From contig DFRJ01000001.1 in NCBI GenBank assembly GCA_002378195.1, positions 161,722 to 225,721 of the forward strand: 64,000 nucleotides of DNA. The letters are read 5' to 3'. How positions within the stretch are numbered: the first letter of the stretch is position 1; every line of letters starts with the position of its first letter. Shown here in pieces: positions 6,376 through 37,834 of this stretch. Made by a program: the position numbers and the translations under genes. The stretch is from Patescibacteria group bacterium UBA3466 (lineage in GTDB: Bacteria; Patescibacteriota; Minisyncoccia; Phycocordibacterales; UBA918). The notes under the pieces were generated by a model. It worked only from the letters and a program-made list of their open reading frames with translations, was not told the origin of the DNA and searched no databases.

Positions 6376-6410
6376 TAAAAAGCCGGCGCCCTACGGGCGC
6401 CGGCTTTTTA
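6376..6410 (+). terminator. Rho-independent terminator (GC-clamp family: aaaaagccggcgccc-tac-gggcgccggcttttt)
   Basis: Perfect 12-bp GC stem followed by a T-run, immediately after rplS. Confidence 0.8.
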
Positions 6411-9321: not shown

Positions 9322-10737
9322 TTAGTTCATCTGTTCTTTCTCTTGTAAAAAGACCTCCTTCGCTTTCTTGTAGGTTTCCATCGTGCGGTGGTAGCTCATC
9401 TTTTGGTCGACGAGTGGGGCAGGGTAATCAGGAGCGAGTGTGCTGAAGTTTTGAGTTTTGCCATCAGTGAGAAGTGAGGCGTCTACCTCTGACAGTTCAG
9501 GAATCCATTTCTTAATATACTCAGCATCTTTATCGTAGTTTACTGCCTGTGTGTACGGGTTAAAGATTCTTAGTGGACGCGGGTCAGCGCCCGTTGACGC
9601 GCTCCATTGCCAGCCACCATTATTTTGACAGGGATCATAATCAATTAATTTTTGGGCAAAATATTTTTCACCCCACTGCCAATTGATAAGGAGATTTTTG
9701 GTAAGGTAGGAGGCAACCACCATACGTGAACGATTATGCATCCAGCCGGTTTTATTTAGCTCGCGCATACCAGCGTCGACCATCGGCACACCGGTTTTGC
9801 CTTCACACCAAGCTTCAAACTGTTCCTCGTCATTAATCCACTCGAGGTGCTTGGCCCACGGCAGGAAAGAGTTTTTGAATACCTGAGGGAAGTGATAAGT
9901 GATATAGAAATAAAAGTCGCGCCAGTATAGTTCTGAAATAAAATGACAACCGATGCCCGAGTGTTCTTTAGCAGTATGGAAACTTTCGCGAATCGAAATT
10001 GTGCCAAATTTATGATGAGCGGATAGTTTCGAGGTGCCGTTGTCGGCCGGGAGGTTGCGTCGATCTTTGTAGTTATTAAGGTACTGGTTTTTATTGAGAA
10101 TCGCGAGACCTTCTTCGCGTCCACCCTGAATCACGTAGTCTTCATTTTTAGGAAGGAGATAGTCTTCCAGTGCCACTAGTTCGGTCTTAAGTGCACTACT
10201 AAAATAATTATCAAAATTATTTTTGCGTGGTTTAGGTACTTCATTTTGAATTGCGTTCTTCATGAACGGAGTGTAGACGGTGTAGACCTTGTCCTGACCG
10301 GTGCGAATAGTTTCGATTGGACTGAGCGCCACATCATCAAGCCTGAAAAGGGGTACTTCCACTGCTTTACACACATCATTAATTTCGCCATCACGTTTTC
10401 GAGAGAAGGGAGTGTAGTCCTTGTTTACATACACAGCCTCCACCTGGTCGTTTTCGATGAGTGATTTTACGACTAATTCAGGCTGACCATGAGCGACGTG
10501 TAATTGCGAGCCACGGTTTTTGAGTGCTTCATCAAGTTCGGCGAGGGAGTTAAGCATGAAGTAGAAAGCGGGGGAGCTAAAAAACTCATTCTCTTTCTTA
10601 TTAATTTGTCGGTCATCAAATATAAATAAAGGCACCACTTCTTCCGAGTTTTCCAAGGCAGCTAACAAGCCGAGGTTGTCTTCCAGTCGCAGATCTCGCC
10701 TGAAAATAAAAACCGATCTTTTATAGGTTTTATCCAT
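9322..10737 (-). CDS. phr: Deoxyribodipyrimidine (CPD) photolyase
   Basis: N-terminal RSVFIFRRDLRLEDN and C-terminal FAD-binding block (GWMHNRSRMVVASYL, DYDPCQNNGGWQW) typical of class I CPD photolyase/cryptochrome. Confidence 0.85.
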   Translation of the reverse strand: MDKTYKRSVFIFRRDLRLEDNLGLLAALENSEEVVPLFIFDDRQINKKENEFFSSPAFYFMLNSLAELDEALKNRGSQLHVAHGQPELVVKSLIENDQVEAVYVNKDYTPFSRKRDGEINDVCKAVEVPLFRLDDVALSPIETIRTGQDKVYTVYTPFMKNAIQNEVPKPRKNNFDNYFSSALKTELVALEDYLLPKNEDYVIQGGREEGLAILNKNQYLNNYKDRRNLPADNGTSKLSAHHKFGTISIRESFHTAKEHSGIGCHFISELYWRDFYFYITYHFPQVFKNSFLPWAKHLEWINDEEQFEAWCEGKTGVPMVDAGMRELNKTGWMHNRSRMVVASYLTKNLLINWQWGEKYFAQKLIDYDPCQNNGGWQWSASTGADPRPLRIFNPYTQAVNYDKDAEYIKKWIPELSEVDASLLTDGKTQNFSTLAPDYPAPLVDQKMSYHRTMETYKKAKEVFLQEKEQMN

Positions 10738-18036: not shown

Positions 18037-18232
18037 GTTGCGCTGTCAAGAAAAACACGTACAAGAATATAAAAATAAAACCTTGTATATATTGGCAAAA
18101 TCTAAAATTTGAATCGTAATTTCGCTACTCAGTAGTTATCCACAGGTTTGAGGGCACTAAGTACAGGATATCCTTATTTATAGAGCTGCACTCGATCACG
18201 CCTAATTCTGGAAAATGGTAGTATTTATTTAT

Positions 18233-18251
18233 CACACGAAGTAGTCGTGTG
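18233..18251. promoter_or_regulatory. Palindromic hairpin cacacga-agtag-tcgtgtg upstream of nrdB (candidate operator, NrdR-box-like spacing off by 1)
   Basis: ACAC-N9-GTGT palindrome ~200 nt upstream of the nrdB start. Confidence 0.25.
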
Positions 18252-18457
18252 TCGGGGGTATGACACACGCTCCTCTCTCTTCAGAAGAGCAGAGCATCAT
18301 TTTTTTAAATGGTGGTGTGTTTGTCGCGGCCTAGTTTGCGCCTAGACCTAATTGCACTAAAATAGTTTCACCAATCTAATTTAGTATCTTCCACCAATTA
18401 CGTCTGCACGCAAGCACCAAAGTCATTTACTCATAATCCAATTATTTAGAGACTTAC

Positions 18458-19771
18458 ATGGAAATCCAAAGCATCAGAAAGAGGGACGGTTCAATCCAAT
18501 CGTTCGATATCAGCAAGATCACCAACGCCGTTGCTAAGGCATTGGCCGAAACCGGGGAAGGAGATCGAGCTGCTGCTGAAGCTGTCGCGGAGCTAGCCCA
18601 TCAAAAAGTTGTCGCCATGTGTGTGCAGGCAGGTACTGCCACCGACGACGACCCAGTATCACAAAAATGTATTGACGGTAATCCAACCGTGGAAGAAATT
18701 CAGGACTTAGTAGAGCAGGCCCTGATGGAGAAGGATTATTACAATACAGCCAAGGAATACATTATTTATCGTAACGCTCGACGCAAACTGCGGGAACGAG
18801 ATATTTTCGCTAAGCGAACAGCCTTCAAGCCTTACGAATACCCAGAGCTATACGAGTACACAGACGCAGTGCGCCACTCATACTGGGTGCACACCGAGTT
18901 CAACTTCACTTCAGACGTACAAGACTTTCACATCAACGTAAACGACGTAGAGCGTTCGGCTATCAAAAACTCCATGCTTGCTATCGCTCAGATTGAGGTA
19001 GCGGTGAAAACTTTCTGGGGAGACATTTACAAGAAAATGCCAAAGGCAGAGATCGGAGCGGTCGGCGCTACTTTCGCGGAATCAGAAGTGCGGCATGCCG
19101 ACGCTTACGCACACTTGCTAGAAATCCTTGGACTCAATGAAGAATTTAATAAGATCAAAGATATTCCAGTGATTCAAAAGCGAATGGCATACCTGGAAGA
19201 AGTGATTGATCTGTCGCGGACGCAAGAAAATCGTGACTACTTCAAGTCAGTAATGCTTTTCTCATTGTTTGTTGAGCACGTGTCACTATTCTCACAATTC
19301 TTGGTGATGATGTCATTTAATAAGCACCGAAATCTATTCAAGGGAATTTCAAACGCAGTTGAGGCAACTTCAAAGGAAGAAAACTTACACGGCATGTTTG
19401 GTATTGATGTGATAAATATCATCAAGGAAGAACATCCAGAATGGTTTGATGCTGAATGTAGAGAGGGAATTATTCAGGCGTGTGAGGAAGCTTACGAAGC
19501 CGAAGCTGAGATCGTAGACTGGATCTTTGAAGCTGGAGAGTTAGACTTTTTGCCATCACAAAACGTTAAAGAATTCATCAAGCATCGCTTCAACAATTCT
19601 TTGGTTGCGATTGGTTTGACTCGACACTTTGAGGTGTCCGAAGCGCTCTTGGAAGAAACTGATTGGTTCGACAACGAAGTTATTGCCACTAAGCACGTAG
19701 ACTTCTTTAACAAGCGATCGATCAACTACAACAAGCGATCTTCTTCTGTAACTTCTGACGATCTCTTCTAA
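18458..19771 (+). CDS. nrdB: Ribonucleotide reductase class I beta subunit (R2) with N-terminal ATP-cone domain
   Basis: N-terminus IRKRDGSIQSFDISKITNAVAKAL is an ATP-cone. It is followed by a ferritin-like R2 fold with iron ligands (EVRHADAYAHLLE, FSLFVEHVSLFSQF, EENLHG) and a C-terminal tail. Confidence 0.85.
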   Translation: MEIQSIRKRDGSIQSFDISKITNAVAKALAETGEGDRAAAEAVAELAHQKVVAMCVQAGTATDDDPVSQKCIDGNPTVEEIQDLVEQALMEKDYYNTAKEYIIYRNARRKLRERDIFAKRTAFKPYEYPELYEYTDAVRHSYWVHTEFNFTSDVQDFHINVNDVERSAIKNSMLAIAQIEVAVKTFWGDIYKKMPKAEIGAVGATFAESEVRHADAYAHLLEILGLNEEFNKIKDIPVIQKRMAYLEEVIDLSRTQENRDYFKSVMLFSLFVEHVSLFSQFLVMMSFNKHRNLFKGISNAVEATSKEENLHGMFGIDVINIIKEEHPEWFDAECREGIIQACEEAYEAEAEIVDWIFEAGELDFLPSQNVKEFIKHRFNNSLVAIGLTRHFEVSEALLEETDWFDNEVIATKHVDFFNKRSINYNKRSSSVTSDDLF

Positions 19772-19872
19772 ACCACCATTTGCCTCGAACTGGGAGATTT
19801 TAAAGAGAAATCGCCCAAGTATTAAATTGGTGTATAATAGCGAAAATTATAAACGCATAATCACAGTAATCT

Positions 19873-21552
19873 ATGGAACCCTGGTACTGGCTGAACGAAA
19901 ATAGTCGCGCGTTTCTGGCCCGAGGATATCTTGGCGAAGAACAAACCGCCGAAGAACGTATTCGTGTCATCGCTGACACAGCAGAAAAATATCTAAAACG
20001 AGACGGCTTCTCAGACAAGTTTTATGAGTATATGTCCAAAGGTTGGATCTCACTGTCTTCACCGGTGTGGTCAAATTTTGGCATTAGCAAGGGCCTGCCA
20101 ATTAGCTGTTTCGGTTCTTACGCTGCCGACAATATGGCCAGCATCCTACACACCAACGGGGAAGTGGGGATGATGAGCAAGTTCGGTGGTGGTTGTTCAG
20201 GCTACTTTGGTGCACTCCGAGCTCGTGGAGCGTCTATCTCAGATAACAACGGCTATTCTTCTGGGTCGGTTCACTTTATGCAGCTGTTCGAAACCTTGGT
20301 GGATGTGGTCTCGCAAGGTTCAGTGCGACGCGGGCATTTCTCACCGTATCTACCGGCCGAACATGATGATGTCATGGAATTCCTCGACATCGGGACTGAA
20401 GGGAACCCGATCCAAAAGCTCACGCACGGGGTGACTGTTGGCGATGAATGGATGGAGTCAATGATCGAAGGCGACGAAGCCAAGCGAAAGATTTGGGCAC
20501 GCATCATTCAGCGGCGGGGAGAAATGGGTTATCCGTACATCATGTTTAATGATACAGCTAACAAAAACACCGTTGACGCCTACAAAGATAAAGACCTCAC
20601 TATTTATGCCAGTAACATGTGTAGTGAGATCATGCTGCCAAGTAAAGAAGACTGGTCATTTGTTTGCTGCTTGTCTTCAGTCAACTTGCTACACTACGAT
20701 GACTGGAAGGATACCGATCTAATCGAGACAATGACCGCTTTTCTAGATGCAGTGATGGAAGATTTCATCGTGAAGTTGGAAGAAATGCGAGATCACGAAG
20801 ATTCAGAAAAACAAGCAGCATTTCGATTTATGGAGCGAGCGTACAACTTCGCTAAAGCCAATAGAGCTCTCGGCTTGGGTGTCCTTGGATACCACTCTCT
20901 ACTACAGGCAAAGAATTTGCCTTTTGAAAGCGACGAAGCAGCTGCTCTCAACACCGAAGTATTCAAATTAATGAAAGAAAAAGCTTATGCTGAGTCGGAA
21001 GTATTGGCTAAGGAGCTTGGTGAACCTGAAGTGCTAGAAGGTTATGGGCGTCGAAACACAACGCTACTGGCTATTGCTCCAACCACTTCATCAGCCTTTA
21101 TTTTGGGGCAAGTGTCTCAAGGGATTGAGCCGATTTGGTCAAACTGCTACATCAAAGATGTGGCTAAGATGAAGGTGACCATTAAGAACCCGACCCTCAA
21201 GAAGCTTTTGGAAGAGAAGGGAGAGGACACAAAAACTACGTGGGACAGCATCCGCGATAATGACGGGTCAGTACAGCACCTAGATTGTTTGTCAGACGAA
21301 GAAAAGGCTATCTTCCGGACTTTTGCTGAAATCGATCAAGCTACTCTCATTGAACAAGCTGGAGAACGACAGAAGTATATCGATCAGGGTCAGTCACTTA
21401 ATGTGATGGTGGCGCCTGATACTCCGGTAAAGGAAATCAATCAGCTATACATCAAAGCTTGGAAGGAAGGAGTGAAATCTCTCTATTACCAACACAGTAT
21501 GAACGCCGCACAGCAATTGGTAAGAAAGAAGCTGACAGAAGGAGGTAAGTAG
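19873..21552 (+). CDS. nrdA: Ribonucleotide reductase class I alpha subunit (R1), short form lacking ATP-cone and C-terminal redox cysteines
   Basis: Active-site blocks ISCFGSY, NMCSEIMLPSK (Cys/Glu), FVCCLSSVNL and the radical-path tyrosines SLYYQHS. 559 aa, ending ...LTEGGK with no Cys. Confidence 0.85.
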   Translation: MEPWYWLNENSRAFLARGYLGEEQTAEERIRVIADTAEKYLKRDGFSDKFYEYMSKGWISLSSPVWSNFGISKGLPISCFGSYAADNMASILHTNGEVGMMSKFGGGCSGYFGALRARGASISDNNGYSSGSVHFMQLFETLVDVVSQGSVRRGHFSPYLPAEHDDVMEFLDIGTEGNPIQKLTHGVTVGDEWMESMIEGDEAKRKIWARIIQRRGEMGYPYIMFNDTANKNTVDAYKDKDLTIYASNMCSEIMLPSKEDWSFVCCLSSVNLLHYDDWKDTDLIETMTAFLDAVMEDFIVKLEEMRDHEDSEKQAAFRFMERAYNFAKANRALGLGVLGYHSLLQAKNLPFESDEAAALNTEVFKLMKEKAYAESEVLAKELGEPEVLEGYGRRNTTLLAIAPTTSSAFILGQVSQGIEPIWSNCYIKDVAKMKVTIKNPTLKKLLEEKGEDTKTTWDSIRDNDGSVQHLDCLSDEEKAIFRTFAEIDQATLIEQAGERQKYIDQGQSLNVMVAPDTPVKEINQLYIKAWKEGVKSLYYQHSMNAAQQLVRKKLTEGGK

Positions 21553-21571
21553 ATTAATTGAAGTGGATTTA

Positions 21572-21604
21572 GAAAGACGGCGCCCTGCGGGCGCCGTCTT
21601 TCTA
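21572..21604 (+). terminator. Rho-independent terminator (GC-clamp family variant: gaaagacggcgccc-tgc-gggcgccgtctttc)
   Basis: Perfect GC-rich stem after nrdA. Confidence 0.75.
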
Positions 21605-26147: not shown

Positions 26148-26516
26148 ATGGAAAATAACAAACTATCAATTATTTACACTAGAAAATTTTGGCTGAGTCT
26201 AATCGTAATTCAAGCATTAACAAATTTAATATTATTGAACATCTTGTATAACACCTCAGATACAGTTTTTGAATACTTATATGCAACTTTGCTGATTTTG
26301 GGGGCTGCTACACCGGCACTAGTTATTTATCCAATATTAGGTGATGGGATAGTTATAGATCTTATAAATTCTCTGGTTTTCGTAGTATTTGCTTTCTACG
26401 TATTTCGAAATGTCGTGAGACCGCGAGGAAAGATTAAAATTCTAATACCGCTTTCATTCGTTACTGTTTCACTAATCAGTTTAATTTTTGGTGCTGTGGT
26501 GATAAGCTCATTTTAA
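26148..26516 (+). CDS. Small multi-TM membrane protein (MENNK-start family, copy B)
   Basis: 122 aa, begins MENNK; its 3' end overlaps convergently with the stop of the 26476-28584 gene. Confidence 0.5.
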   Translation: MENNKLSIIYTRKFWLSLIVIQALTNLILLNILYNTSDTVFEYLYATLLILGAATPALVIYPILGDGIVIDLINSLVFVVFAFYVFRNVVRPRGKIKILIPLSFVTVSLISLIFGAVVISSF

Positions 26517-28584
26517 TTTCTGCAATTAAGTCACGGCTGGTTTGCGCATCCTCTGGGGAGATTTGATCTCTACGTTCTAATCTTTCGATCATCCTATCTA
26601 TTCGTCGTAGTAAAAATTTTGCTGTCCGGTCGGAGATTCGGGTATTCTTTAGTGACATTTTTTCAGCCAACTTGATCCTTAGCAGCAAGCGCTTTTCGTT
26701 GTGGCGGCTTAAGTCGCTGTCTTTTATTGCAGCTTTTAGTGCAGCAAACAATTCTTCCGTGGTCGGAGGTTCTTCTGCGGTATAAAGTCCTAGTCCGTAG
26801 CGAGAGAAGGTGGTGTTGGTAAAGGTGACGGTGCTTTCTGCTACGTTTACATTACTGTCTAATTTTGGTTCCCAGGTTGCTGTCTCAGGATTAAAGTAGA
26901 AAACAATCAGTTCTTCCGCATTACCTCCTAGTTCTGTTATCAGTTCTGGTTCATAAGCAAAGGTTACATCGACTGAGAAAGTGTCATTTTCGAGCGATGA
27001 TTCCAGATCCCAGAAGATAGGTAGCATTTTGGTACCGTCTGGTATCAGACCTTCAGTGACGGGTTCTTGATAGGGAGTGATGTTGAAGGTGGTGCCAGCT
27101 GGTAGAGGAGAGGTAAATTGCATCTCAATGTCAGACTTGGGGAAGGAGATGTAATCAGTTTCTTCCGTTAGTTCTAATTGCGAAATGGTATCGATCCCGG
27201 CCCAGGCCACAGGATTTAAGAAACGAGTTGTGCCACCGACGTTGAGGAAGCCAGGTCCTCGAGGTCCATCACCACCCGGTGTGAGCGTTAAATCAGATCC
27301 CCACTTACCGCTAAAATTTAAAAAGATTTGATCGATGCTAGATAGTTTATTTAAACTATCTAGAGTTACACCAGAATTAGAAGTTATATCTGTGCCAACA
27401 CCAGTATTAATACTTTTTACATAAGGATAATTCGCGTGTGATCCTAATGACACATAGCTCACTAGCCGTTCAGCATCTTTAGTTACTTCTTCGCTATCCC
27501 AAGCCCTTCTCACAGAGTCGTAGGTTTTGGGATCAAAGTCTTCCGCATCCCCATTATTATGATGAGCTGAATAAGCCACATATTCAGGCTCCTCAGTTTC
27601 GGCGTCCAAGAAAATAAAGACTGATTCAAAATCACCTTCGTGGTTGTTAAAGCCTCCTTGTTCAGCCCAATTATTCATCGCGTAAAACTGCCAGTATTGC
27701 AGGACGATATAGTCTTTGTCGGCCGTGGAGTCAGTCATGCGGTGGGCGTAGACGGTCACATTTTCAGGGTCGGGGGTGCCGTACTTGGTGCGGGCCGCAT
27801 CGAGATCGATTGAAGCTGGGTTGTTCGGGTCGCTGTAGGCGAGGTAGTAATCTTCAGTATTATTTTGCTCTACTATCTGTGCAAAGGTGGCTGGAGTCAG
27901 ACTTTCTTCATTGAGGACAATTTCATCTACCAACTCTCCATCCCAGAGAGCGCTATCAGTAATAAACTCTTCCATGCTCATCGGGAAGTAGTCTTCATCA
28001 GGGTGCATTCGCAATATCGGTGCGTACTCTAAAAGTAGTGGGTCAATTTCTTCCTCGTCAGAGGGCGCTACCACCGTGAAGGTAGTCACGTAAGTGTAGG
28101 TAGGGGGAAATTCTTGAGCGTGAGCAGTCGGGATTAAAAATTCTAGCCATTGGTTGCGTTTTGCTTCCGAAAGGACCATTAGGAATTCATCCATGGTCAC
28201 AAGAGTGTAGGTGCCATAACCGTCGAGAGCTAGTCTAAAATTATTACTACTGTCACGGTAGTCATCTCCGTCGTGCTTATAAATAAAAGAAGAAGCACTG
28301 GTGTTTCTCGGATCACCTACCTCTTCCAAGATAGCCGAGTCTGGATCTTCTACTTCTATCACATCACCGTCATTAATGATGGTGCCGTTAATTTCCAATT
28401 TGATAGCTGGTTCTATATCAGATTTGCCAAAAGGATCCTCACAGTCTTCGATGGGATGTATTTCCTCAAAAAAGTCGATAATGTTGCCGCAGGGTAGATC
28501 GGCGCTGGCTTGATTGGTAAAAGTGAATAGTAATGAAAGGGCGAGCAGGAAAGATAACGCTCTAGCTTTGATTGTGATGGTCAT
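26476..28584 (-). CDS. Secreted protein with Vps62/DUF946-like domain and helical basic C-terminal tail
   Basis: Signal peptide MTITIKARALSFLLALSLLFTFTNQASA; central YVLQYWQFYAMNNW...GGFNNHEGDFESVFIFLD resembles the Vps62 (PF06101) HxGDWE core. The C-terminal 100 aa are K/R-rich helical. Confidence 0.5.
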   Translation of the reverse strand: MTITIKARALSFLLALSLLFTFTNQASADLPCGNIIDFFEEIHPIEDCEDPFGKSDIEPAIKLEINGTIINDGDVIEVEDPDSAILEEVGDPRNTSASSFIYKHDGDDYRDSSNNFRLALDGYGTYTLVTMDEFLMVLSEAKRNQWLEFLIPTAHAQEFPPTYTYVTTFTVVAPSDEEEIDPLLLEYAPILRMHPDEDYFPMSMEEFITDSALWDGELVDEIVLNEESLTPATFAQIVEQNNTEDYYLAYSDPNNPASIDLDAARTKYGTPDPENVTVYAHRMTDSTADKDYIVLQYWQFYAMNNWAEQGGFNNHEGDFESVFIFLDAETEEPEYVAYSAHHNNGDAEDFDPKTYDSVRRAWDSEEVTKDAERLVSYVSLGSHANYPYVKSINTGVGTDITSNSGVTLDSLNKLSSIDQIFLNFSGKWGSDLTLTPGGDGPRGPGFLNVGGTTRFLNPVAWAGIDTISQLELTEETDYISFPKSDIEMQFTSPLPAGTTFNITPYQEPVTEGLIPDGTKMLPIFWDLESSLENDTFSVDVTFAYEPELITELGGNAEELIVFYFNPETATWEPKLDSNVNVAESTVTFTNTTFSRYGLGLYTAEEPPTTEELFAALKAAIKDSDLSRHNEKRLLLRIKLAEKMSLKNTRISDRTAKFLLRRIDRMIERLERRDQISPEDAQTSRDLIAEIKMSLSPQHQKLN

Positions 28585-28624: not shown

Positions 28625-29137
28625 CTAAGATCCTTTTCTTTCGTAATCAATCCATTGGAATTTTATGCCGTTGTGCTCTTGGGGTGCGTGTTCTTTGGTG
28701 ACGGCAAAGTCGGCTGAGAAATCAGGGAAGAAAGTATCTGCTTCTGGTTCGTCTTCGACTAGAGTGAGGTGTAGTCGGTCCACTAAAGGCAGGGCTTCAC
28801 GGTAGAGCATGGCACCGCCGCCGATATGTATTTCGGTGGGGTTTTCTTCTTTCGCGATATTTATTCCATCTTCTAAAGAATGAGCCACCTTGGCACCTGG
28901 CGTAACTTCTTCACCAACTCGAGAGAGAACAATATTGGTCCGCCCCGGCAAAGGCTTGCCCAAAATTTTAATGATAGATTCGTAGGTATTTCGACCCATT
29001 ATGATGGGGTACCCGAGGGTTAATTCTTTGAAATGCTTAAGGTCTTCCGGCAAGTGCCAAAGCAGTTGGTTTTTAAAACCGATCGCGCGGCGCTCTTTAC
29101 TCATGGCCGCAACAATGACTAGTGGTGGTTTATTCAT
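28625..29137 (-). CDS. folA: Dihydrofolate reductase
   Basis: VIVAAMSKERRAIGFKNQLLWHLPEDLKHFKELTLGYPIIMGRNTYESI is canonical DHFR. Confidence 0.9.
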   Translation of the reverse strand: MNKPPLVIVAAMSKERRAIGFKNQLLWHLPEDLKHFKELTLGYPIIMGRNTYESIIKILGKPLPGRTNIVLSRVGEEVTPGAKVAHSLEDGINIAKEENPTEIHIGGGAMLYREALPLVDRLHLTLVEDEPEADTFFPDFSADFAVTKEHAPQEHNGIKFQWIDYERKGS

Positions 29138-29201
29138 AGAGGCAATTATGCCATAGGCTGTATAAGTTGAAATGGCGACAGGCTAAAAACGAGCCGGTAT
29201 A

Positions 29202-29903
29202 ATGATCAGACTTAATCTGTATCTGCTTATGTCTCAATTTGAAATCGAAATAAAATCTTTACTCGGCGAAAAAACTAATGCTGAAAATTTAAAAGCTCGC
29301 ATGGCCGAATTGGATCCCGGGCATAAGCAGGTGTCTGAAAATAAGCAGCTCAACCACTACTTCGAAGGGGGTGACGTTCATAAACTATATGACTTAGTTG
29401 AACATCTATACACCGGAGTAGAGCACGACAAATTTAAAATGCTGGCAGAGAAGGGGACTAATTGTTCAGTGCGAACACGGCAGCGTGATGATGAGGTTTT
29501 GCTCGTAGTTAAAGCTTCCATCGACGAGGGTACCAGCGAAAACACGGTGAAGCGAATGGAGTTTGAAGAACCAGTGAGCATTACTCTCGAAGAACTTGAT
29601 GATTTGGTGCAGCAGGCCGGATATAAATATCAGGCCAAGTGGTCGCGGGATCGGGAAGAGTATGAATACAAGGGCGTTAATGTCTGCATTGACCGCAACG
29701 CTGGTTACGGATATCTGGCCGAGTTTGAGAAGATCGTTGAGGATGAAGCCGAAACCGATGTGGTAAAAAATCAGTTATTGGAATTGATGCAAGAACTGCA
29801 GGTTGAAGAATTGCCGCAAGAAAGATTGGCGCGGATGTTTGAGCACTACAACGCTAATTGGCCAGACTACTATGGCACCGATAAGGTGTTCAGTATTGAG
29901 TAG
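29202..29903 (+). CDS. CYTH-domain protein (class IV adenylyl cyclase / triphosphatase-like)
   Basis: Starts with the EIEIK strand-1 motif of the CYTH fold and has acidic clusters consistent with a triphosphate tunnel. The true start is likely MSQFEIEIK at 29229. Confidence 0.5.
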   Translation: MIRLNLYLLMSQFEIEIKSLLGEKTNAENLKARMAELDPGHKQVSENKQLNHYFEGGDVHKLYDLVEHLYTGVEHDKFKMLAEKGTNCSVRTRQRDDEVLLVVKASIDEGTSENTVKRMEFEEPVSITLEELDDLVQQAGYKYQAKWSRDREEYEYKGVNVCIDRNAGYGYLAEFEKIVEDEAETDVVKNQLLELMQELQVEELPQERLARMFEHYNANWPDYYGTDKVFSIE

Positions 29904-29953
29904 ATTATTAATCGGTTTTGCGCCCACAGTGAGACCTCTCTATAATAGGAATT

Positions 29954-30502
29954 ATGTTTTTGTCTGACATTGATATTAAAAAAGCGGTGGATGCGGGAGA
30001 GATTACTCTCGAGCCTTTTAATGAGGAGAAATTGCAGCCCGCTAGTTACGACATACTGCTAGGTAATAAGTTTGTAGTGAATGATGAACATCAAACTCCA
30101 CTGGTTGATCCTGCCAAAAATATTTTCGCCAAGACCCGGGAGATCGAGGTCGCCGATGGCGAAGAGTTTATTCTGCATCCGGGTGTGTCGGTGCTGGGGA
30201 TCTCCAAAGAATACTTCGGGTCCAATAAATATTTGGTTCAGGTTGGTGGTAAGTCATCGCTCGCTCGCGTGGGACTGATGATTCACAATACGGCCGGACT
30301 TATTAATCCGGGGCACTTCCTCCACATTACTTTTGAGCTTTGCAATCTCAACAACGTACCGATTATTCTCCGGCCAGGCATGGAGATTGCCCAGCTTACA
30401 TTTTCGATTCTCTCTAGCCCACCCAGCACGGCATATGATAATGAAGAACGAGGGAAGGACAATTGGGAGAGCAATTTTAAGGGTCGCGATTTGATTAAAT
30501 AA
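29954..30502 (+). CDS. dcd: dCTP deaminase (dUTPase superfamily)
   Basis: MFLSDIDIKKAVDAGEITLEPF...QPASYDILLGN is the canonical Dcd N-terminus. Confidence 0.85.
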   Translation: MFLSDIDIKKAVDAGEITLEPFNEEKLQPASYDILLGNKFVVNDEHQTPLVDPAKNIFAKTREIEVADGEEFILHPGVSVLGISKEYFGSNKYLVQVGGKSSLARVGLMIHNTAGLINPGHFLHITFELCNLNNVPIILRPGMEIAQLTFSILSSPPSTAYDNEERGKDNWESNFKGRDLIK

Positions 30503-30512
30503 AAAAGCAATT

Positions 30513-31529
30513 ATGTCAGAGAAAAAACATCCAGAATATCAATATTTAGACTTATGTCAGGACATTCTTGATAATGGCGCTGATAAAGAATTGTTTTTCA
30601 ATGATGTTGTACTTGAGGAGTACAAGAAAAAAGGGGAAGAGCCGCCGTTTATTCGCTCAGTCTTCGGTCGGCAAATTCGCTTTGATTTATCGGAAGGATT
30701 TCCGCTTCTCACCACCAAAAAAACATTTTGGCGAGGAATTACCACCGAACTTTTATGGTTTCTTTCTGGTGATTCAAATTTGAAACCGCTCGTTGATCAG
30801 AATAATCATATTTGGGACGAGTGGGCGTGGAAGATGTATCACATGTGGGCGGTTGAAAATGCTCCAGATGAAGACATGACTCAGGAAGAGTTTATTACAA
30901 AAATTGCCGAGTCTGATGCGGATGATGAATTCGTCCAAAAATGGGGAGACCTGATCACTATCTATGGTCGAATGTGGCGCCGGTGGCCAGCCAAAGATGG
31001 CCGCGAGATCGATCAGTTGCAGTGGGTTATTGATGGACTAAAGAAGAAACCAGATCGTAAGAGTTATGTGGTAAATGCGTGGAATCCAGACTTTATTTAC
31101 GAAATGGCTTCTGAAGGTCAGCAGTCACAAGTGCCACCGTTTTGCCATACGATGTTTCAGTTTCAGGTGGCAAACGGTAAGTTGAATCTCGGTCTTTACC
31201 AACGATCGGCTGATGTTTTCTTGGGCGTACCATTCAATATTGCAAGTTACGCATTGTTGTTGAAGATGGTAGCGCAGGTGGTCGATATTCCAGCCGGGGA
31301 ATTTGTACATACTTTTGGTGACGCTCATATTTATTCTAATCACTTTGATCAAGTGAACGAGCAAATGTCTCGTGAGCCAATGTCTTTCCCGGAAGTGAAG
31401 CTGAACCCGGAGATTAAAAATATCGACGACTTTAAGCTTGAAGACATCGAGTTGGTCGACTATCAATCTCATCCGTCATTACGTGGAGAGATTGCTAATA
31501 TTGGTGGATTCGAGAAGAAAAATAAATAG
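30513..31529 (+). CDS. thyA: Thymidylate synthase (ThyA) with N-terminal extension and ~35-aa insertion
   Basis: FIRSVFGRQIRFDLSEGFPLLTTKK, ELLWFLSGDSN, catalytic PPFCHTMFQF and SADVFLGVPFNIASYALL blocks; 338 aa versus ~264 typical. Confidence 0.9.
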   Translation: MSEKKHPEYQYLDLCQDILDNGADKELFFNDVVLEEYKKKGEEPPFIRSVFGRQIRFDLSEGFPLLTTKKTFWRGITTELLWFLSGDSNLKPLVDQNNHIWDEWAWKMYHMWAVENAPDEDMTQEEFITKIAESDADDEFVQKWGDLITIYGRMWRRWPAKDGREIDQLQWVIDGLKKKPDRKSYVVNAWNPDFIYEMASEGQQSQVPPFCHTMFQFQVANGKLNLGLYQRSADVFLGVPFNIASYALLLKMVAQVVDIPAGEFVHTFGDAHIYSNHFDQVNEQMSREPMSFPEVKLNPEIKNIDDFKLEDIELVDYQSHPSLRGEIANIGGFEKKNK

Positions 31530-31759
31530 TCGGATGAAGGGATTGTTACAATTTTTTTTCCATGTCTACTTATTTCCTAGAGTAGATTAAAGTATTCGAC
31601 CATCGGCGCCGCTCAGTCATCTGCTGAAGTGACCAAAGAGGCTTTGTCATTGGTATCTTAAATCGTGCTATAATTTTGCCAATAATTTTCGTTTTATGAT
31701 CTAACTCATTCGCCACCACTTAGTAGAGCAAGTTAACAGTTACGGTAATTTATTTAAGT

Positions 31760-33031
31760 ATGAGCGAATATAAATACATCAAAGATCAAGACGAAGAAAT
31801 CTATCAAACACTAGTAGGAGAAGAGGAGCGCGAACGAGTCGGGATTGAATTAATTCCGAGTGAAAACTACGCCTCATTGGCGGTGCGGGAAGCTTGTGGT
31901 TCGGTATTTACCAACAAATACTCAGAAGGCTATCCAGGGAGGAGGTACTATGGTGGACAGGAGTTTACTGACCAAATGGAAACTATTGCCATCGAGCGGG
32001 CTAAAAAATTATTTAAAGCTGAGTACGCTAACGTTCAACCGCTCGGGGGAGCGGCCGCCAATGTTGCAATGTATTTTGCGCTCATGGAACCAGGCGACAC
32101 GGTGCTTGGTATGGATCTTTCACACGGCGGACATCTTACTCACGGTCATCCGACTACTGCTATCAATAAAGTCTTCAATTTTGTTCGCTACAAAATGAAA
32201 GATGTCGACACGGGGGAGATCGACTATGAACATTTGCGAGAGATGGCTATTGAGCACAAACCAAAGATAATCTTGGCTGGCTTTTCTGCTTACAGTCGGG
32301 AGCTTGATTACGCTAAGTTTAAAGAAATAGCCGATGAGGTGGGGGCGTATACCGTAGCGGACATTGCCCACATTACTGGACTAATTGCTGGTGGGGTAGC
32401 CAAAAATCCATTCGATTATGGTTTTGATGTAATGACTATGACTACTCATAAGTCACTTCGCGGTCCACGGGGAGGAATGATTGTGATCCGCGAAGACGAA
32501 GAAATCGCTAAGAAAATAAATAAGGCTGTCTTCCCGGGTATGCAAGGTGGTCCGCACATGCATATTATTGCTGCCAAGGCGGTGGCGTTTGGTGAAGCCC
32601 TGCATCCAAACTTCAAGCTTTATGCTGAGCAGATTGTTAAAAATGCCAAAGCTATGGAGGTTGTATTTAAAGATCACGAAGTGCGACTACTATGTGGTGG
32701 CACTGATAATCATCTACTACTGGCTGACGTGTACGGCTCACTAGGGGTGACCGGACAAGAGGCCGAGACCGTGCTCGATGAAGTGGGTATCACTCTCAAT
32801 AAAAACATGATCGCCGATGAGCCGCGCTCAGCTCTTGACCCATCTGGTATACGCTTCGGTACTCCGGCCATGACCACCCGCGGTATGAAAGAAGAAGAAG
32901 CTACCAGCTTAGCTGAGTTGATGATCCGAACCCTGAAAAATAAAGACAACGAAGCAGAGAAAGAAAAGATCAGACAGGCAGTGGTCGCTCTTTGTGAAAA
33001 ATTTCCGGTACCTGAAACTTTTGTCGACTAA
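31760..33031 (+). CDS. glyA: Serine hydroxymethyltransferase
   Basis: GIELIPSENYASLAVREACGSVFTNKYSEGYPGRRYYGG and the PLP-lysine region TTHKSLRGPRGG. Confidence 0.95.
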   Translation: MSEYKYIKDQDEEIYQTLVGEEERERVGIELIPSENYASLAVREACGSVFTNKYSEGYPGRRYYGGQEFTDQMETIAIERAKKLFKAEYANVQPLGGAAANVAMYFALMEPGDTVLGMDLSHGGHLTHGHPTTAINKVFNFVRYKMKDVDTGEIDYEHLREMAIEHKPKIILAGFSAYSRELDYAKFKEIADEVGAYTVADIAHITGLIAGGVAKNPFDYGFDVMTMTTHKSLRGPRGGMIVIREDEEIAKKINKAVFPGMQGGPHMHIIAAKAVAFGEALHPNFKLYAEQIVKNAKAMEVVFKDHEVRLLCGGTDNHLLLADVYGSLGVTGQEAETVLDEVGITLNKNMIADEPRSALDPSGIRFGTPAMTTRGMKEEEATSLAELMIRTLKNKDNEAEKEKIRQAVVALCEKFPVPETFVD

Positions 33032-34294: not shown

Positions 34295-37200
34295 ATGTCT
34301 GATATACATAAACAATCTAATATGAATAACAAGAATGATGGTCGCGTAAGCGACAAGGTAAAAGTGGTTGACGCTAAGCCTGCTTCTGAAGTGGCCAGGC
34401 GAGAAGAGGACATGCAAGCCTTTTGGGTTGAGCATGACATTTTTAATAAAACCTTAGAGACTCCAGCTGGCAATGAGCCAGACGGGGATTTTGTTTTTTA
34501 TGACGGTCCACCATTTGCCACCGGAGCACCTCACTACGGACACCTACTACAAAGCGCTCTCAAAGATGCCATTCCACGCTTTTGGACCATGAACGGCAAG
34601 CGGGTGCGTCGCCAGTGGGGGTGGGATTGTCACGGATTGCCGGTTGAGAATTTGATTGAAAAGAAATTGGGACTAGCCACCAAGAAGGATATTGAAGATT
34701 TTGGAGTAAAAAACTTTAACGAAGAAGCGCGTAATACCGTCATGGAGTACGCTGATGATTGGCGACAAATCGTGCCGCGCATGGGTCGGTTTGTTGATAT
34801 GGAAAATGACTACAAGACCATGGACAGTACCTACACCGAAAGTGTGTGGTGGGTGTTTAAGTCACTACATGAAAAAGGTTTGGTGTATGAAGGTTTTAAG
34901 ACTATGCATCTTTGTCCACGCTGTGGTACGACCTTGTCCAACTTCGAGGTGAATCAGGGTTATAAGGACATCAAGGATTTATCGGTGTTTGTTGAGTTGC
35001 CACTAATAGATGAAGCGGCTTCGCTGATAGTCTGGACGACTACTCCGTGGACTCTGCCGGGCAACATCGCCGCTGCAGTACATAAAGACATTGAGTATGC
35101 TCGAGTTAAGCTGACCGAAGATGATGGGGAAAAGACCGTGATCTTAGCCAAGGATCGGATTGAAGCTGTGCTTGGACAAAAGACTTTTGAAATCATCGGC
35201 ACTTACCAAGGGTCTGAACTGATCGGCAAGCAGTATCAGCCACCTTTTGATTATCATCAAAAGGAAGAGTTTGACGGAAAAGAAAATTGCTGGACGATTT
35301 ACCACGCCGATTATGTTGAGGTCGGTGAAGAAGGTAGTGGTATTGTGCACATTGCAGCTGCGTATGGAGAAGATGACATGAATTTGGCCAAAGAGAATGG
35401 GGTGCCAATCCGGCACCATGTCAATGAATCCGGCCATTTTATGGATTTTGTTACTGACTTTGCAGGTCTGCTGGTAAAGCCAAAAGATGACAAGACAGCC
35501 GATATCAATCATATGGACACCGATATCGAGATCATTCGCGCTTTGGCACAAAAAGGTGTGTTATTTGGTAAGGAAAAAATTACTCACAGCTATCCGCATT
35601 GTTGGCGTTGTGAGACACCGCTTCTGAATTACGCCACCACCTCTTGGTTTGTTGAAGTGACCAAGTTACGCAGTGAGTTATTGGCTGCAAACGCCGAGGT
35701 AGATTGGGTGCCAGAACATGTAGGGAAGAATCGCTTTGGAAAGTGGCTTGAGGGTGCGCGCGACTGGGCAGTGTCACGACAGCGTTATTGGGGAGCACCT
35801 TTACCGATCTGGAAAAATCCGGACACAAACGAGGTGCATGTCATTGGTGGGCTCGAAGAGCTAAAGAAATTAGTGAAAACTAGTGGCAATCAGTATGTAC
35901 TAATGCGCCACGGTGAGAGTGAAAGTAATATCAAAGGTATCATTAGCTGCAACAAAGCAAATGTTGACGGACTGACTGATAAAGGTAAAGAGCAGGCGAC
36001 AACGTCAGCTGCAAAGCTAGAAGATATCGATGTGATTATTCATTCAGGCTTCCAGCGCACCAAAGAGACGGCTGAAATTGTGGCCGCCCGTTTTCCTGGC
36101 GTCGAACTAATTGAAGATGATCGGATTCGTGAACTTGACCTGAGTGATGATTTTGAAGGTCAGACTTGGAAAGAGTACAACGCCAGCTTTGGTACTTGGG
36201 AAGAAAAGTTTAAAAAAGAATTGGTTGGTTCCGAAAACCGCCTAGACGTACAAAAGCGTATGGGAGAGTTCTTGTACGATCTGGATAAGCGCTATGCCGA
36301 CAAGAAGATTTTGATTGTCAGTCACGCCGGCCCATTGTTTGCTCTTGAGTGTGCAATTGACGGCTTGAATATCGAACAGTCAAAAAGCTACTTCGCTGAC
36401 GGAGCGGCCTACTTCAACAACGCTGAAGTGCGCACGCCAGATTTTTGTCCACTACCGCATAATGATAATTATGAACTTGATTTCCATCGTCCATACATAG
36501 ATGAGGTGGAATTATATGATGGGGGAGTGCGACTTTTGCGCGTACCGGATGTGTTTGATTGTTGGTTTGAATCTGGCTCAATGCCGTACGCTCAAAATCA
36601 CTATCCATTCTCGTGTGATCAAGAGGTGTTCCTGCAGCAACGATTCCCAGCGCAGTTTATTGGCGAAGGTTTAGATCAGACTCGTGGTTGGTTCTATTCA
36701 ATGATTGTGCTGGGAGTGGCTTTGTTCGGTAAGTCACCGTATGAAAACGTCGTAACAAATGGCTTGGTGCTGGCTGAAGATGGCCGGAAGATGAGTAAAT
36801 CATTACAGAATTATCCTGATCCAGTCGAGCTGATCAGTCAGGTGGGTGCCGATACCATTCGCTTTTATCTCCTGTCATCGTCATTGATAAGAGGGGAAGA
36901 TGTAAACTTTTCTGAGAAGGAGGTGCAAGAATTACAAAGAAAGAATATTGGTCGACTACACAATGTGCTGGTGATGTACCAGATGTTTGCGGATGGCACT
37001 GAGGCGGCCGACAATTCAGACCATGTGCTAGACCGATGGGTGGTAGCTCGCCTGAATCAATTGGTTGCTGAAGTGACAGCAGGTTATGAAAATTATGAGC
37101 TCGATAAAGCCACTCGACCAATTACTGATTTTATTGATGACCTGTCAGTATGGTACTTGCGTCGTAGTCGCGATCGTCTTAAAAGTGATGATGAGAAAGA

Positions 37201-37834
37201 CAAGGCTTTGGCACTTAGCACCTTGCGCTATGTGCTACAAAATCTTGCTTTAGTGATGGCTCCAGTGATGCCGTTTTACGCAGAATTTCTGTGGCAAGCG
37301 GTTAAAGAAGAAACTGAGGCTGAAAGCGTGCACTTAGGTCGGTGGCCAAAAACGACGAAGATTGATGAGTCGGTGGTGGTTGATATGTTGGCGACCAGAA
37401 CTATCGTAACCGAGGCGCTAGAGGCGCGGACTACGGCTGGGATTAAGGTGCGTCAACCAATTCAGGCTGTTTTCGGCCCGAAACTAGCAGCTGAGCTGTC
37501 AGCTATAGTGGTTGAAGAACTTAATGCCAAAGAGTACCAAGAGGCCGAGACTGTAAAGATTGATACTGAGCTGACCGCGGAGCTTTTGTCTGAAGGAGCG
37601 GTGCGAGAACTCATGCGAGCGGTGCAGGGAAATAGAAAGCAGGCCGGGCTGCAGCCAGACGACGAAATTACCCTCACTATCCAAGCAGATGAAGCTAGCA
37701 AACAGGCGGTGGAGACCCACGAGGAGCTTTTGGTAAGAACAGTAGGAGCAAGCGAGCTAGCATTTGCTGAGGTTACTGGGGAAGAGGTGCAAGCTGGAGA
37801 TTATAAGTTTGTCTTTACCATTAAGACTGCCTAG
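34295..37834 (+). CDS. ileS: Isoleucyl-tRNA synthetase carrying an inserted histidine-phosphatase (phosphoglycerate-mutase-like) domain
   Basis: HIGH (PFATGAPHYGHLL), editing-domain TTPWTLPGN and KMSKS motifs are all present. Between IWKNPDTNEVHVIGG and DFHRPYIDEV lies a ~200-aa block with the histidine-phosphatase motifs LMRHGESESN and ILIVSHAGP. Confidence 0.85.
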   Translation: MSDIHKQSNMNNKNDGRVSDKVKVVDAKPASEVARREEDMQAFWVEHDIFNKTLETPAGNEPDGDFVFYDGPPFATGAPHYGHLLQSALKDAIPRFWTMNGKRVRRQWGWDCHGLPVENLIEKKLGLATKKDIEDFGVKNFNEEARNTVMEYADDWRQIVPRMGRFVDMENDYKTMDSTYTESVWWVFKSLHEKGLVYEGFKTMHLCPRCGTTLSNFEVNQGYKDIKDLSVFVELPLIDEAASLIVWTTTPWTLPGNIAAAVHKDIEYARVKLTEDDGEKTVILAKDRIEAVLGQKTFEIIGTYQGSELIGKQYQPPFDYHQKEEFDGKENCWTIYHADYVEVGEEGSGIVHIAAAYGEDDMNLAKENGVPIRHHVNESGHFMDFVTDFAGLLVKPKDDKTADINHMDTDIEIIRALAQKGVLFGKEKITHSYPHCWRCETPLLNYATTSWFVEVTKLRSELLAANAEVDWVPEHVGKNRFGKWLEGARDWAVSRQRYWGAPLPIWKNPDTNEVHVIGGLEELKKLVKTSGNQYVLMRHGESESNIKGIISCNKANVDGLTDKGKEQATTSAAKLEDIDVIIHSGFQRTKETAEIVAARFPGVELIEDDRIRELDLSDDFEGQTWKEYNASFGTWEEKFKKELVGSENRLDVQKRMGEFLYDLDKRYADKKILIVSHAGPLFALECAIDGLNIEQSKSYFADGAAYFNNAEVRTPDFCPLPHNDNYELDFHRPYIDEVELYDGGVRLLRVPDVFDCWFESGSMPYAQNHYPFSCDQEVFLQQRFPAQFIGEGLDQTRGWFYSMIVLGVALFGKSPYENVVTNGLVLAEDGRKMSKSLQNYPDPVELISQVGADTIRFYLLSSSLIRGEDVNFSEKEVQELQRKNIGRLHNVLVMYQMFADGTEAADNSDHVLDRWVVARLNQLVAEVTAGYENYELDKATRPITDFIDDLSVWYLRRSRDRLKSDDEKDKALALSTLRYVLQNLALVMAPVMPFYAEFLWQAVKEETEAESVHLGRWPKTTKIDESVVVDMLATRTIVTEALEARTTAGIKVRQPIQAVFGPKLAAELSAIVVEELNAKEYQEAETVKIDTELTAELLSEGAVRELMRAVQGNRKQAGLQPDDEITLTIQADEASKQAVETHEELLVRTVGASELAFAEVTGEEVQAGDYKFVFTIKTA

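Follow-up and report, generated by a model that had tools for sequence, protein, structure and literature searches.

Repeated loss of the cysteine tail of the catalytic subunit and a new cysteine pair in the ATP-cone of class Id ribonucleotide reductases from Patescibacteria

How does a class I ribonucleotide reductase (RNR) return its active site to the reduced state when the cysteine tail that should carry the electrons there is missing? The question is raised by an nrdB-nrdA operon of Patescibacteria group bacterium UBA3466, found in a 64-kb stretch of contig DFRJ01000001.1 (positions 161,722 to 225,721) that is referred to here, in its entirety, as the window; residue numbers are those of the NrdB and NrdA encoded in the window unless another protein is named. 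Here we describe a catalytic subunit (NrdA, or α) that ends without any cysteine, the repeated loss of the cysteine tail within a large clade of Paceibacteria, and the confinement of that loss to lineages in which the radical-generating subunit (NrdB, or β) has gained a pair of cysteines, Cys55 and Cys71, in its regulatory ATP-cone. Our most far-reaching reading, to which we give a probability of roughly 0.35, is that β has acquired a third function in this clade, so that a subunit which makes the radical and bears the ATP/dATP switch would also deliver reducing equivalents in place of the α cysteine shuttle, in an operon headed by a new leader RNA that is possibly a riboswitch. An earlier interpretation of the locus, made without database searches and called here the sequence-only reading, had drawn attention to the short NrdA and its missing tail; the conserved Cys55/Cys71 pair, which offers the strongest hint of how the enzyme manages without that tail, was not part of it.

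A class Id enzyme with a minimal catalytic subunit

The two genes lie on the same strand with nrdB before nrdA, as had been noted before (coordinates of all features are collected in Table 1), and the homologs nearest to their products come from Patescibacteria (Ca. Nomurabacteria, Kaiserbacteria and Paceibacteria). NrdB begins with an ATP-cone, matched by PF03477 over residues 5-109 (E 4e-20; 72.6 bits against a cutoff of 25.8), continues into the Ribonuc_red_sm domain over residues 122-393 (E 5e-59), and aligns end to end with the ATP-cone::NrdB of L. blandensis (PDB 5OLK, E 4e-166), which bears out the sequence-only reading in its claim that this class I RNR carries its ATP-cone on β. That reading had also seen a ferritin-like R2 domain with iron ligands; the R2 family stands, while the metal has to be revised, since the ligands match those of a class Id dimanganese site. 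The metal-site residues E180, K184, E210, H213, Y217, E273, T304, E308 and H311, together with W187, are invariant in the NrdBs of the clade, and the class Id hallmarks of the L. blandensis protein, Glu170, Lys174, Tyr207, Thr294 and Trp177 (PMC6754362; PMC5794259), map at an offset of +10 onto E180, K184, Y217, T304 and W187. Conservation of these hallmarks leads us to expect, by homology (PMC6754362), that the cofactor is most likely Mn2(IV,III) rather than iron. The KRDG motif of the ATP-cone is likewise conserved, and the residues that build the dATP-induced β4 tetramer in L. blandensis, namely D73, D76, M80, K89, I92, I93 and R95 (PMC5794259), have equivalents in D83, E86, M90, K99, I102, I103 and R105 that are invariant in the NrdBs of the clade. 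With the nucleotide-binding motif and the β4 interface both intact, the enzyme would be expected to be switched on and off by ATP and dATP through tetramerisation of β, in the manner of L. blandensis.

NrdA scores 742.6 bits against TIGR02510, above the curated cutoff of 602.25, and its best relatives of known structure are the class Id α subunits 6DQX from Actinobacillus ureae (E 1e-210) and 6DQW from Flavobacterium johnsoniae (E 5e-176). Pfam finds Ribonuc_red_lgN over residues 6-73, the barrel domain, and nothing else. The length of 559 residues and the lack of an ATP-cone had thus been read correctly, whereas the view that the protein starts directly in the catalytic barrel does not hold, because the all-α N-terminal domain is kept. 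Its short minimal architecture (559 residues, no ATP-cone) is that of a class Id α subunit; the median length of NrdAi proteins is 564 residues (PMC9669993). The catalytic set is present, with the thiyl radical residue C250, the redox pair C79/C265, N248, E252 and the radical-transfer dyad Y538-Y539, and the four positions that were tested across homologs, C79, C250, E252 and C265, are invariant in 145/145 NrdA sequences compared. We take C79/C265 to be equivalent to Cys225/Cys462 of E. coli NrdA, C250 to Cys439, E252 to Glu441 and Y538/Y539 to Tyr730/731. Both subunits are under strong purifying selection (82-100% identity over hundreds of clusters), and we regard it as practically certain that nrdB-nrdA encodes a class Id (NrdAi/NrdBi) aerobic RNR.

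Much of this architecture is already known. An ATP-cone on β, an α without one and the β-α gene order define the NrdAi/NrdBi subclass, which has been characterised in L. blandensis (PMC5794259) and in F. ignava (PMC6187632), in agreement with the remark in the sequence-only reading that allosteric control via β had been described in a few bacteria; according to Burnim et al., β-borne ATP-cones occur almost exclusively in β-α operons (PMC9669993). The class Id enzyme of L. blandensis (PDB 5OLK, 6SF4; Rozman Grinberg et al. 2018 eLife, 2019 JBIC) has the same placement of the ATP-cone, the same hallmark and β4-interface residues, the same short α without an ATP-cone and the same gene order; it differs in that the insertion in the ATP-cone of the window protein is mostly gapped there (13 fewer residues) and in that the window α has no C-terminal cysteine. 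The enzymes of A. ureae and F. johnsoniae share the minimal α architecture and the TIGR02510 family, but they have no ATP-cone on β, matches to Pasteurellaceae NrdB beginning only at about query residue 107-113, and the NrdA of the Pasteurellaceae homologs terminates in ...NLLSCSSCEG.

The missing tail and the cysteine pair of the ATP-cone

The C-terminus of the window NrdA reads LYYQHSMNAAQQLVRKKLTEGGK, with 0 cysteines among the 20 residues that follow the Tyr538-Tyr539 dyad (residues 540-559). The E. coli class Ia enzyme has the same active-site chemistry, and its NrdA C754S/C759S mutants reportedly lose thioredoxin-dependent activity while keeping activity with dithiothreitol (DTT); removal of the C754/C759 tail is thus said to abolish thioredoxin-dependent turnover, and the window protein is without tail cysteines by nature. 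All class I RNRs have been stated to carry a C-terminal cysteine pair (PMC6187632), and CXXC was counted in 1737/2022 class I sequences (PMC9531940). Our own survey of rarity searched 1.84 billion representatives and inspected the best 150 NrdA relatives (34-65% identity; 50% cluster level), among which 142 carry a CxxC tail about 20 residues past the tyrosine dyad and the other 8 are fragments or have a split tail. In the literature we found no description of a class I α without a cysteine tail, of a cysteine-bearing ATP-cone or of an nrd leader RNA from the candidate phyla radiation (CPR), which is not proof of absence. Since both active-site cysteines are kept, a Cys79-Cys265 disulfide would be expected to form after each turnover by ordinary chemistry and to need re-reduction, and the suggestion in the sequence-only reading that re-reduction must be unusual is thereby supported.

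The loss is real, in our confident judgment, as well as clade-wide and repeated. The identical 559-residue NrdA is encoded on 17 contigs of independent assemblies, including a 1.34-Mb Tara scaffold of the marine member to which the window belongs; the tail cysteines are absent from 120/120 of the nearest NrdA cluster representatives (82-100% identity, 557-576 residues) and from about 90 further loci, 37 of them from metagenomes and the rest from some 50 species-level genomes. The nrdA genes of about 55 loci use TAA, TAG and TGA as stop codons, second in-frame stops follow, and no conserved CxxC occurs in any frame 3' of the stop. A sequencing error or frameshift at the 3' end of nrdA, which the sequence-only reading had named, for 21540-21560, as a finding that would refute it, is ruled out by the identical contigs, the clade-wide absence, the stops and a terminator-type hairpin directly after the nrdA stop, and stop readthrough or recoding is ruled out by the use of three stop codons, the second stops and the lack of a conserved CxxC beyond them. 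Appearances can deceive in this respect, for Gracilibacteria homologs seem truncated merely because UGA encodes glycine, and one locus (P0244), on a phage-like contig, seems tail-less yet has its CxxC (…NAPCSACEG) in an overlapping reading frame; even so, we consider it negligible that a truncated gene call, a sequencing error, a programmed frameshift or readthrough conceals a normal CxxC tail in the window protein. P0244 was accordingly rejected as a tail loss outside the clade. Its tail is a separate overlapping ORF of 72 residues, the product of a frameshift or a naturally split tail, and the same contig carries a RRXRR-family (PF14239) ORF between nrdB and nrdA (L086:3627-7886).

The hairpin after nrdA belongs to a family, GGCGCCC-(3-4 nt)-GGGCGCC, that occurs 6 times in the window against an expectation of 0.04, with plus-strand copies at 6385, 21579, 23565, 24533, 25443 and 51747. 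The copies examined sit just 3' of gene ends (rplS, nrdA, a SIMPL-domain gene, rplK and others), and the element is probably the standard intrinsic terminator of this genome or else resembles a repetitive extragenic palindromic (REP) sequence. Translation of the hairpin yields spurious 'RRPSGAG' peptides in several junk ORFs.

A candidate for compensation is a pair of cysteines in β. When the cysteine columns of the operons from species genomes were compared, Cys55 and Cys71 were both present in 49/49 operons with a tail-less NrdA and in 0/21 with a tailed one. The C-x15-C motif recurs with exact spacing in an independent set of 120/120 further NrdB cluster representatives, and in the combined NrdB alignment no member of the clade is without the pair, whether tail-less (84/84) or tailed (5/5). 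The two residues flank a clade-specific insertion in the α2-α3 loop of the ATP-cone, 15 residues lying between them in the motif …AMCVQAGTA…DP…KC.DG.P.VEEIQD…; within it residues 62-69 vary (up to 2.9 bits of entropy) while both cysteines are invariant. His48 lies nearby in 82% of sequences, and it and Asp73 both vary. AlphaFold2 models the ATP-cone with a predicted local distance difference test (pLDDT) score of 78-94 and the insertion as an ordered helix-turn-helix (pLDDT 82-90), in which helix α2, containing Cys55, reaches residue 60 and is followed by a turn, a short helix at residues 66-69, and then Cys71. Residues 103-159, which join the ATP-cone to the R2 core, have a pLDDT below 50 in this model, and the linker between the two is probably flexible. 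Neither Pfam nor NCBIfam finds a glutaredoxin (Grx) or thioredoxin domain in NrdB, so that the pair is a C-x15-C within the ATP-cone and not the CxxC of a redoxin.

The history of the pair and the tail can be reconstructed because both states, and their combination, are represented among living lineages. Among the NrdA proteins of 80 species-level genomes, all those with about 69% or more identity to the query are without tail cysteines, and these belong to Paceibacteria/Parcubacteria lineages; sister Patescibacteria have a longer tail, …QQFGRKKL-(linker)-C[IL]SC[EQ][AS], and the NrdA proteins of Peribacteria, Gracilibacteria, Helcococcus and Pasteurellaceae terminate in CxxC. A metagenome scan seeded around the transition between tailed and tail-less sequences recovered the intermediates: loci L127 and L132 (…QQLTRQKICRACE), L131 (…ALTRQKICVSCEA), L139 and L136 keep the CxxC of α and already have the cysteine pair in β, which in L136 is a C-x9-C variant. 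The reverse combination, a tail-less α with an ATP-cone that has no cysteine pair, was found at no locus; the single locus flagged by pattern (L165) has an α that ends in CVGSCEA. In neighbor-joining trees of the NrdA core with the tail excluded (100 bootstrap replicates), monophyly of all tail-less sequences was recovered in 0/100, L131 grouped with the tail-less L050 group in 97/100, L127 and L132 fell inside the tail-less radiation in 100/100, and parsimony required at least 3 state changes in 99/100. A first tree had shown the tail-less set as monophyletic and suggested a single loss, which would have been weak evidence; the metagenome intermediates overturned it. The β cysteine pair therefore arose first, apparently once, and independent losses of the α tail then followed, at least two or three of them, solely in the background of that pair, two losses being a robust minimum. 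No column of NrdA or NrdB separates tail-less from tailed members of the clade with the pair, so the tail was lost without any further change being needed in either subunit. NrdA Cys108 (GGGCSGY) was considered as a compensating residue and rejected, being a trait of the crown subclade that is absent from the other tail-less groups.

Two further features of these proteins are recorded here in their own right. In the N-terminal all-α domain of NrdA, Trp4 (19882-19884) and Trp58 (20044-20046) are near-universal in the clade with the pair, including the tailed L127, L131 and L136; outside it tryptophan is rare at these positions, which hold Met/Phe and Tyr instead, and the two residues may be co-evolved contacts to the modified ATP-cone. 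Outside the clade, two metagenome loci (L143 and L152) have a different cysteine pair in the α2-α3 loop, the CxxxC of …GC[KD]GYCPTVEEIQ, together with an NrdA that retains its CxxC tail, and the loop may be a recurrent site of cysteine gain in ATP-cones.

Routes for electrons to the active site

We tentatively propose, at somewhat less than even odds, that the Cys55/Cys71 dithiol of the ATP-cone relays reducing equivalents to α and makes the α tail dispensable. In this mechanism, which is drawn from comparison of sequences, the insertion would place the invariant dithiol on a small helix-turn-helix, the pair would take electrons from a cellular reductant, and it would hand them on to the α active site either directly or via a transient intermolecular disulfide; once the β pair was present, the α tail would be redundant and free to disappear. 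The sequence of events agrees with this proposal, with the β pair appearing first and α-tail loss repeated only in that background. Two known systems make such a relay physically plausible. In the α4β4 cryogenic electron microscopy structure of the L. blandensis enzyme, the two subunits come nearest to each other, at about 10 Å, at α Lys560, not far from the C-terminus, and ATP-cone residue Thr16 (PMC8350387), which puts the ATP-cone near the exit point of the α tail. The NrdBi of F. ignava carries a Grx domain N-terminal to its ATP-cone; this fused domain reduces the RNR efficiently (PMC6187632) and provides a precedent for a reductant borne on β. That Grx::ATP-cone::NrdBi protein (Rozman Grinberg et al. 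2018 JBC, PMC6187632) has a complete, glutathione-dependent Grx domain (CPWC), whereas the window NrdB has no redoxin fold and only the C-x15-C inside its ATP-cone; the F. ignava NrdA also ends in ...LACEA (from a primer sequence, PMC6187632), keeping its tail cysteine, while the tail of the window α is gone.

Several points weigh against the relay. The insertion is modelled as an ordered element (pLDDT 82-90) with its cysteines 15 residues apart, unlike the CxxC or Cx4C of a disordered tail that can be threaded into the active-site cleft, and a folded domain may not reach Cys79/Cys265. The cysteine pair arose once, so that any other innovation of the clade located elsewhere, such as a dedicated redoxin, would mimic the pattern, and our comparison of neighborhoods spans ±10 kb. 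Some lineages hold both pair and tail, which means that gaining the pair is not enough to render the tail useless. How many losses there were exactly is uncertain as well, given neighbor joining on a single protein with short internal branches.

The main rival explanation, a serious contender that we nonetheless hold somewhat doubtful, is an unlinked reductant: a redoxin encoded elsewhere, or a low-molecular-weight dithiol, would reduce Cys79-Cys265 directly, and Cys55 and Cys71 would be a structural staple or a redox-sensing switch. The tail-less E. coli mutants, which are said still to work with DTT, speak for it, as do an insertion that is ordered and not a flexible arm, and the coexistence of pair and tail, which gives the pair a function independent of tail loss. 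Class III RNRs, which likewise function without a C-terminal cysteine shuttle, are a further example, since direct reduction by thioredoxin is assumed for some of them and formate serves others (PMC9531940), although they differ in their glycyl radical, their strict anaerobiosis and the arrangement of their active-site cysteines, and no homology-based link from the window RNR to class III was found. What an unlinked reductant leaves unexplained is the confinement of recurrent tail loss to the clade with the cysteine pair, unless that reductant is a synapomorphy of exactly that clade. Structural disulfides are moreover uncommon in the cytoplasm, and the ±10 kb around nrdBA contain no conserved redoxin gene in about 50 genomes. 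The window itself holds no thioredoxin, glutaredoxin, NrdH or thioredoxin reductase. In a separate search for a thioredoxin of the tail-less genomes, the matches listed, at least 120 of them, were all close to the Gracilibacteria query.

Some capacity for disulfide reduction is nevertheless encoded in the window by an Lpd-like flavoprotein with a CLNRGC redox center, the sole gene of the disulfide-reductase type there, which can be counted on the side of an unlinked reductant even though it is not syntenic with nrd elsewhere. As a linked partner of nrd, and a possible source of a small dithiol, it was rejected for the same lack of synteny in other genomes; it lies in a same-strand cluster with a photolyase gene (9322-10737) and a DPRP photolyase-related gene. 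Redoxin-like ORFs do lie upstream of nrdB in a few other genomes. In Helcococcus and a related metagenome-assembled genome of Bacillota (L070, L071 and L074), an NrdH-like ORF stands directly upstream of ATP-cone::nrdB, with the CxxC of α kept, which adds a third way of placing the reductant with respect to the operon, next to the fusion in F. ignava. One tail-less genome (L052:4194-4994, plus strand) has, 3.5 kb upstream of nrdB, an ORF in which a Grx-like N-terminal domain (CPYG) is joined to a membrane domain with several passes; it was not seen at the other loci.

It is improbable, in our view, that the pair serves as ligands of a metal or an Fe-S cluster, for instance as 2+2 cysteines between two ATP-cones, with a role in oligomerisation or redox sensing and only an indirect coincidence with tail loss. 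Two invariant cysteines on a compact helix-turn-helix, the pairing of ATP-cones in the β4 tetramer (PMC5794259) and a His48 that is frequent nearby would suit such a site; yet there are just two invariant ligands, His48 and Asp73 varying, the known interface between ATP-cones is formed by helices α3 and α4 and not by the α2-α3 loop, and the problem of re-reduction would be left unsolved. Still less credible is a tail-less enzyme that has abandoned disulfide chemistry, or that is not the working RNR of the cell but a decaying or single-turnover one, with a class II or III RNR elsewhere as its back-up: although every species with an ATP-cone NrdB known in 2018 also encoded another RNR (PMC5794259), the invariance of Cys79, Cys250, Glu252 and Cys265, the purifying selection on both subunits, the conserved, putatively regulatory leader of the operon, and a window with no second RNR and no other protein with an ATP-cone all speak against it.

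Leader RNA, neighboring genes and significance

The operon with the cysteine pair has a second unusual feature. The roughly 230 nt 5' of nrdB consist of conserved blocks interrupted by variable hairpins, and a covariance model (R1) built on three reliably aligned helices matches one copy per genome, in each case just 5' of nrdB. It matches about 42 species-level and 32 metagenome loci of the clade with the cysteine pair (L004, L006-L053, L087-L132), including the tailed L127 and L132 and, weakly, L131, and it matches no locus outside that clade. In an alignment of 34 sequences, 96.8% of cells are paired and 15/24 pairs show double changes (103 cells), a level reached in 0/500 shuffles, while slid controls give 22-47% pairing; the alignment was fitted to the model, which favors structure somewhat. 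The leader contains an invariant hairpin, GUGUGUC-GGAGGUAA-GACACAC, whose flanking segments, CACACGA and GGUGUGUU, could pair alternatively, and a 3' domain of three helices with a conserved UCUUCCACC internal loop. A conserved box just 5' of it, TGnTAnnAT, occupies one and the same position in the upstream alignment of relatives and may be a promoter, although a consensus promoter scanner made no call at 18216..18224. Rfam 15 gives no match at the gathering threshold. The best permissive match, SorX, reached 23.6 bits against a threshold of 46.6 and covered one hairpin, and the leader was rejected as a member of that or another known Rfam family; a conserved leader peptide was also ruled out, as the ATG that follows GGGGGT occurs in the window alone, TAAGAC standing in its place in relatives. 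The leader is thus a candidate for a new cis-regulatory RNA of a deoxynucleotide-synthesis operon, either a riboswitch or an attenuator.

Table 1. Positions of the features discussed, numbered from the first letter of the window.
Feature	Position	Strand	Basis or remark
Lpd-like class I flavoprotein disulfide reductase, 462 aa	7924-9312	-	NF004944, 605.6 bits, under the cutoff of 619; CLNRGC redox center
Putative extended -10-like promoter box TGgTAGTAT, just 5' of the leader	18216..18224	+	Alignment of relatives
Structured 5' leader RNA of nrdB, ~190 nt	18227..18418	+	Covariance model R1, 152 bits, E 2.6e-35
nrdB, ATP-cone::NrdBi class Id radical-generating subunit, 437 aa	18458..19771	+	ORF, Pfam, 5OLK match
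ATP-cone domain, NrdB residues 5-109	18470..18784	+	PF03477, E 4e-20
Clade-specific insertion in the α2-α3 loop of the ATP-cone, flanked by Cys55 (18620-18622) and Cys71 (18668-18670)	18620..18670	+	
nrdA, NrdAi ('NrdE-prime') catalytic subunit, 559 aa, without ATP-cone	19873..21552	+	TIGR02510, 6DQX/6DQW matches
C-terminal tail, NrdA residues 540-559, QHSMNAAQQLVRKKLTEGGK, no cysteine	21490..21549	+	Sequence, homologue comparison
Terminator-type hairpin AGAAAGACGGCGCC-CTGC-GGGCGCCGTCTTTCT	21571..21603	+	Read from sequence; core 27 nt past the nrdA stop
DHFR	28625-29137	-	
CYTH	29202-29903		
dCTP deaminase	29954-30502		
Thymidylate synthase	30513-31529		
SHMT	31760-33031		

Elsewhere in the window, a dTMP-synthesis cluster (28625-33031) lies 7 kb downstream of nrdBA, with NUDIX genes near, and a closed Nomurabacteria genome (L004) has a neighborhood similar to this cluster. 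A class I aminoacyl-tRNA synthetase of 1179 residues (tRNA-synt_1, of the I/L/M/V type; 34295-37834, plus strand) has a His_Phos_1 domain inside its catalytic domain (residues 535-698, E 4e-30), which is an unusual insertion. Three large ORFs, of 702 residues (26476-28584, minus strand), 688 residues (57347-59413, plus strand) and 330 residues (1720-2712, plus strand), match no Pfam or NCBIfam family significantly, and such family-less proteins are typical of the 'dark' proteins of the CPR.

What is new in this operon is the repeated natural loss of a cysteine tail that had been held universal in α, conditional on a new and invariant cysteine pair in the ATP-cone of β. The tail-less enzymes are a natural, abundant and strongly conserved counter-example to the universal C-terminal cysteine pair of class I, encoded in hundreds of sequence clusters from Patescibacteria of marine, freshwater and groundwater habitats. 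Evolution has supplied the controls, in the form of sisters with a tail only, intermediates with both tail and β pair, and independent losses, so that the route of electrons to an active site without a shuttle becomes directly testable. With the leader RNA comes an orphan candidate riboswitch linked to the synthesis of deoxynucleotides. Should the ATP-cone pair not be the relay, an undiscovered RNR reductant would exist in these bacteria, and it would bear on the synthesis of DNA precursors in episymbionts with reduced genomes. If the pair is the relay, a regulatory domain would have been recruited for redox chemistry, β-borne reductants would extend beyond the single Grx fusion known, and β as the carrier of a third function would represent a new solution to the turnover of RNR and the first redox-active ATP-cone.

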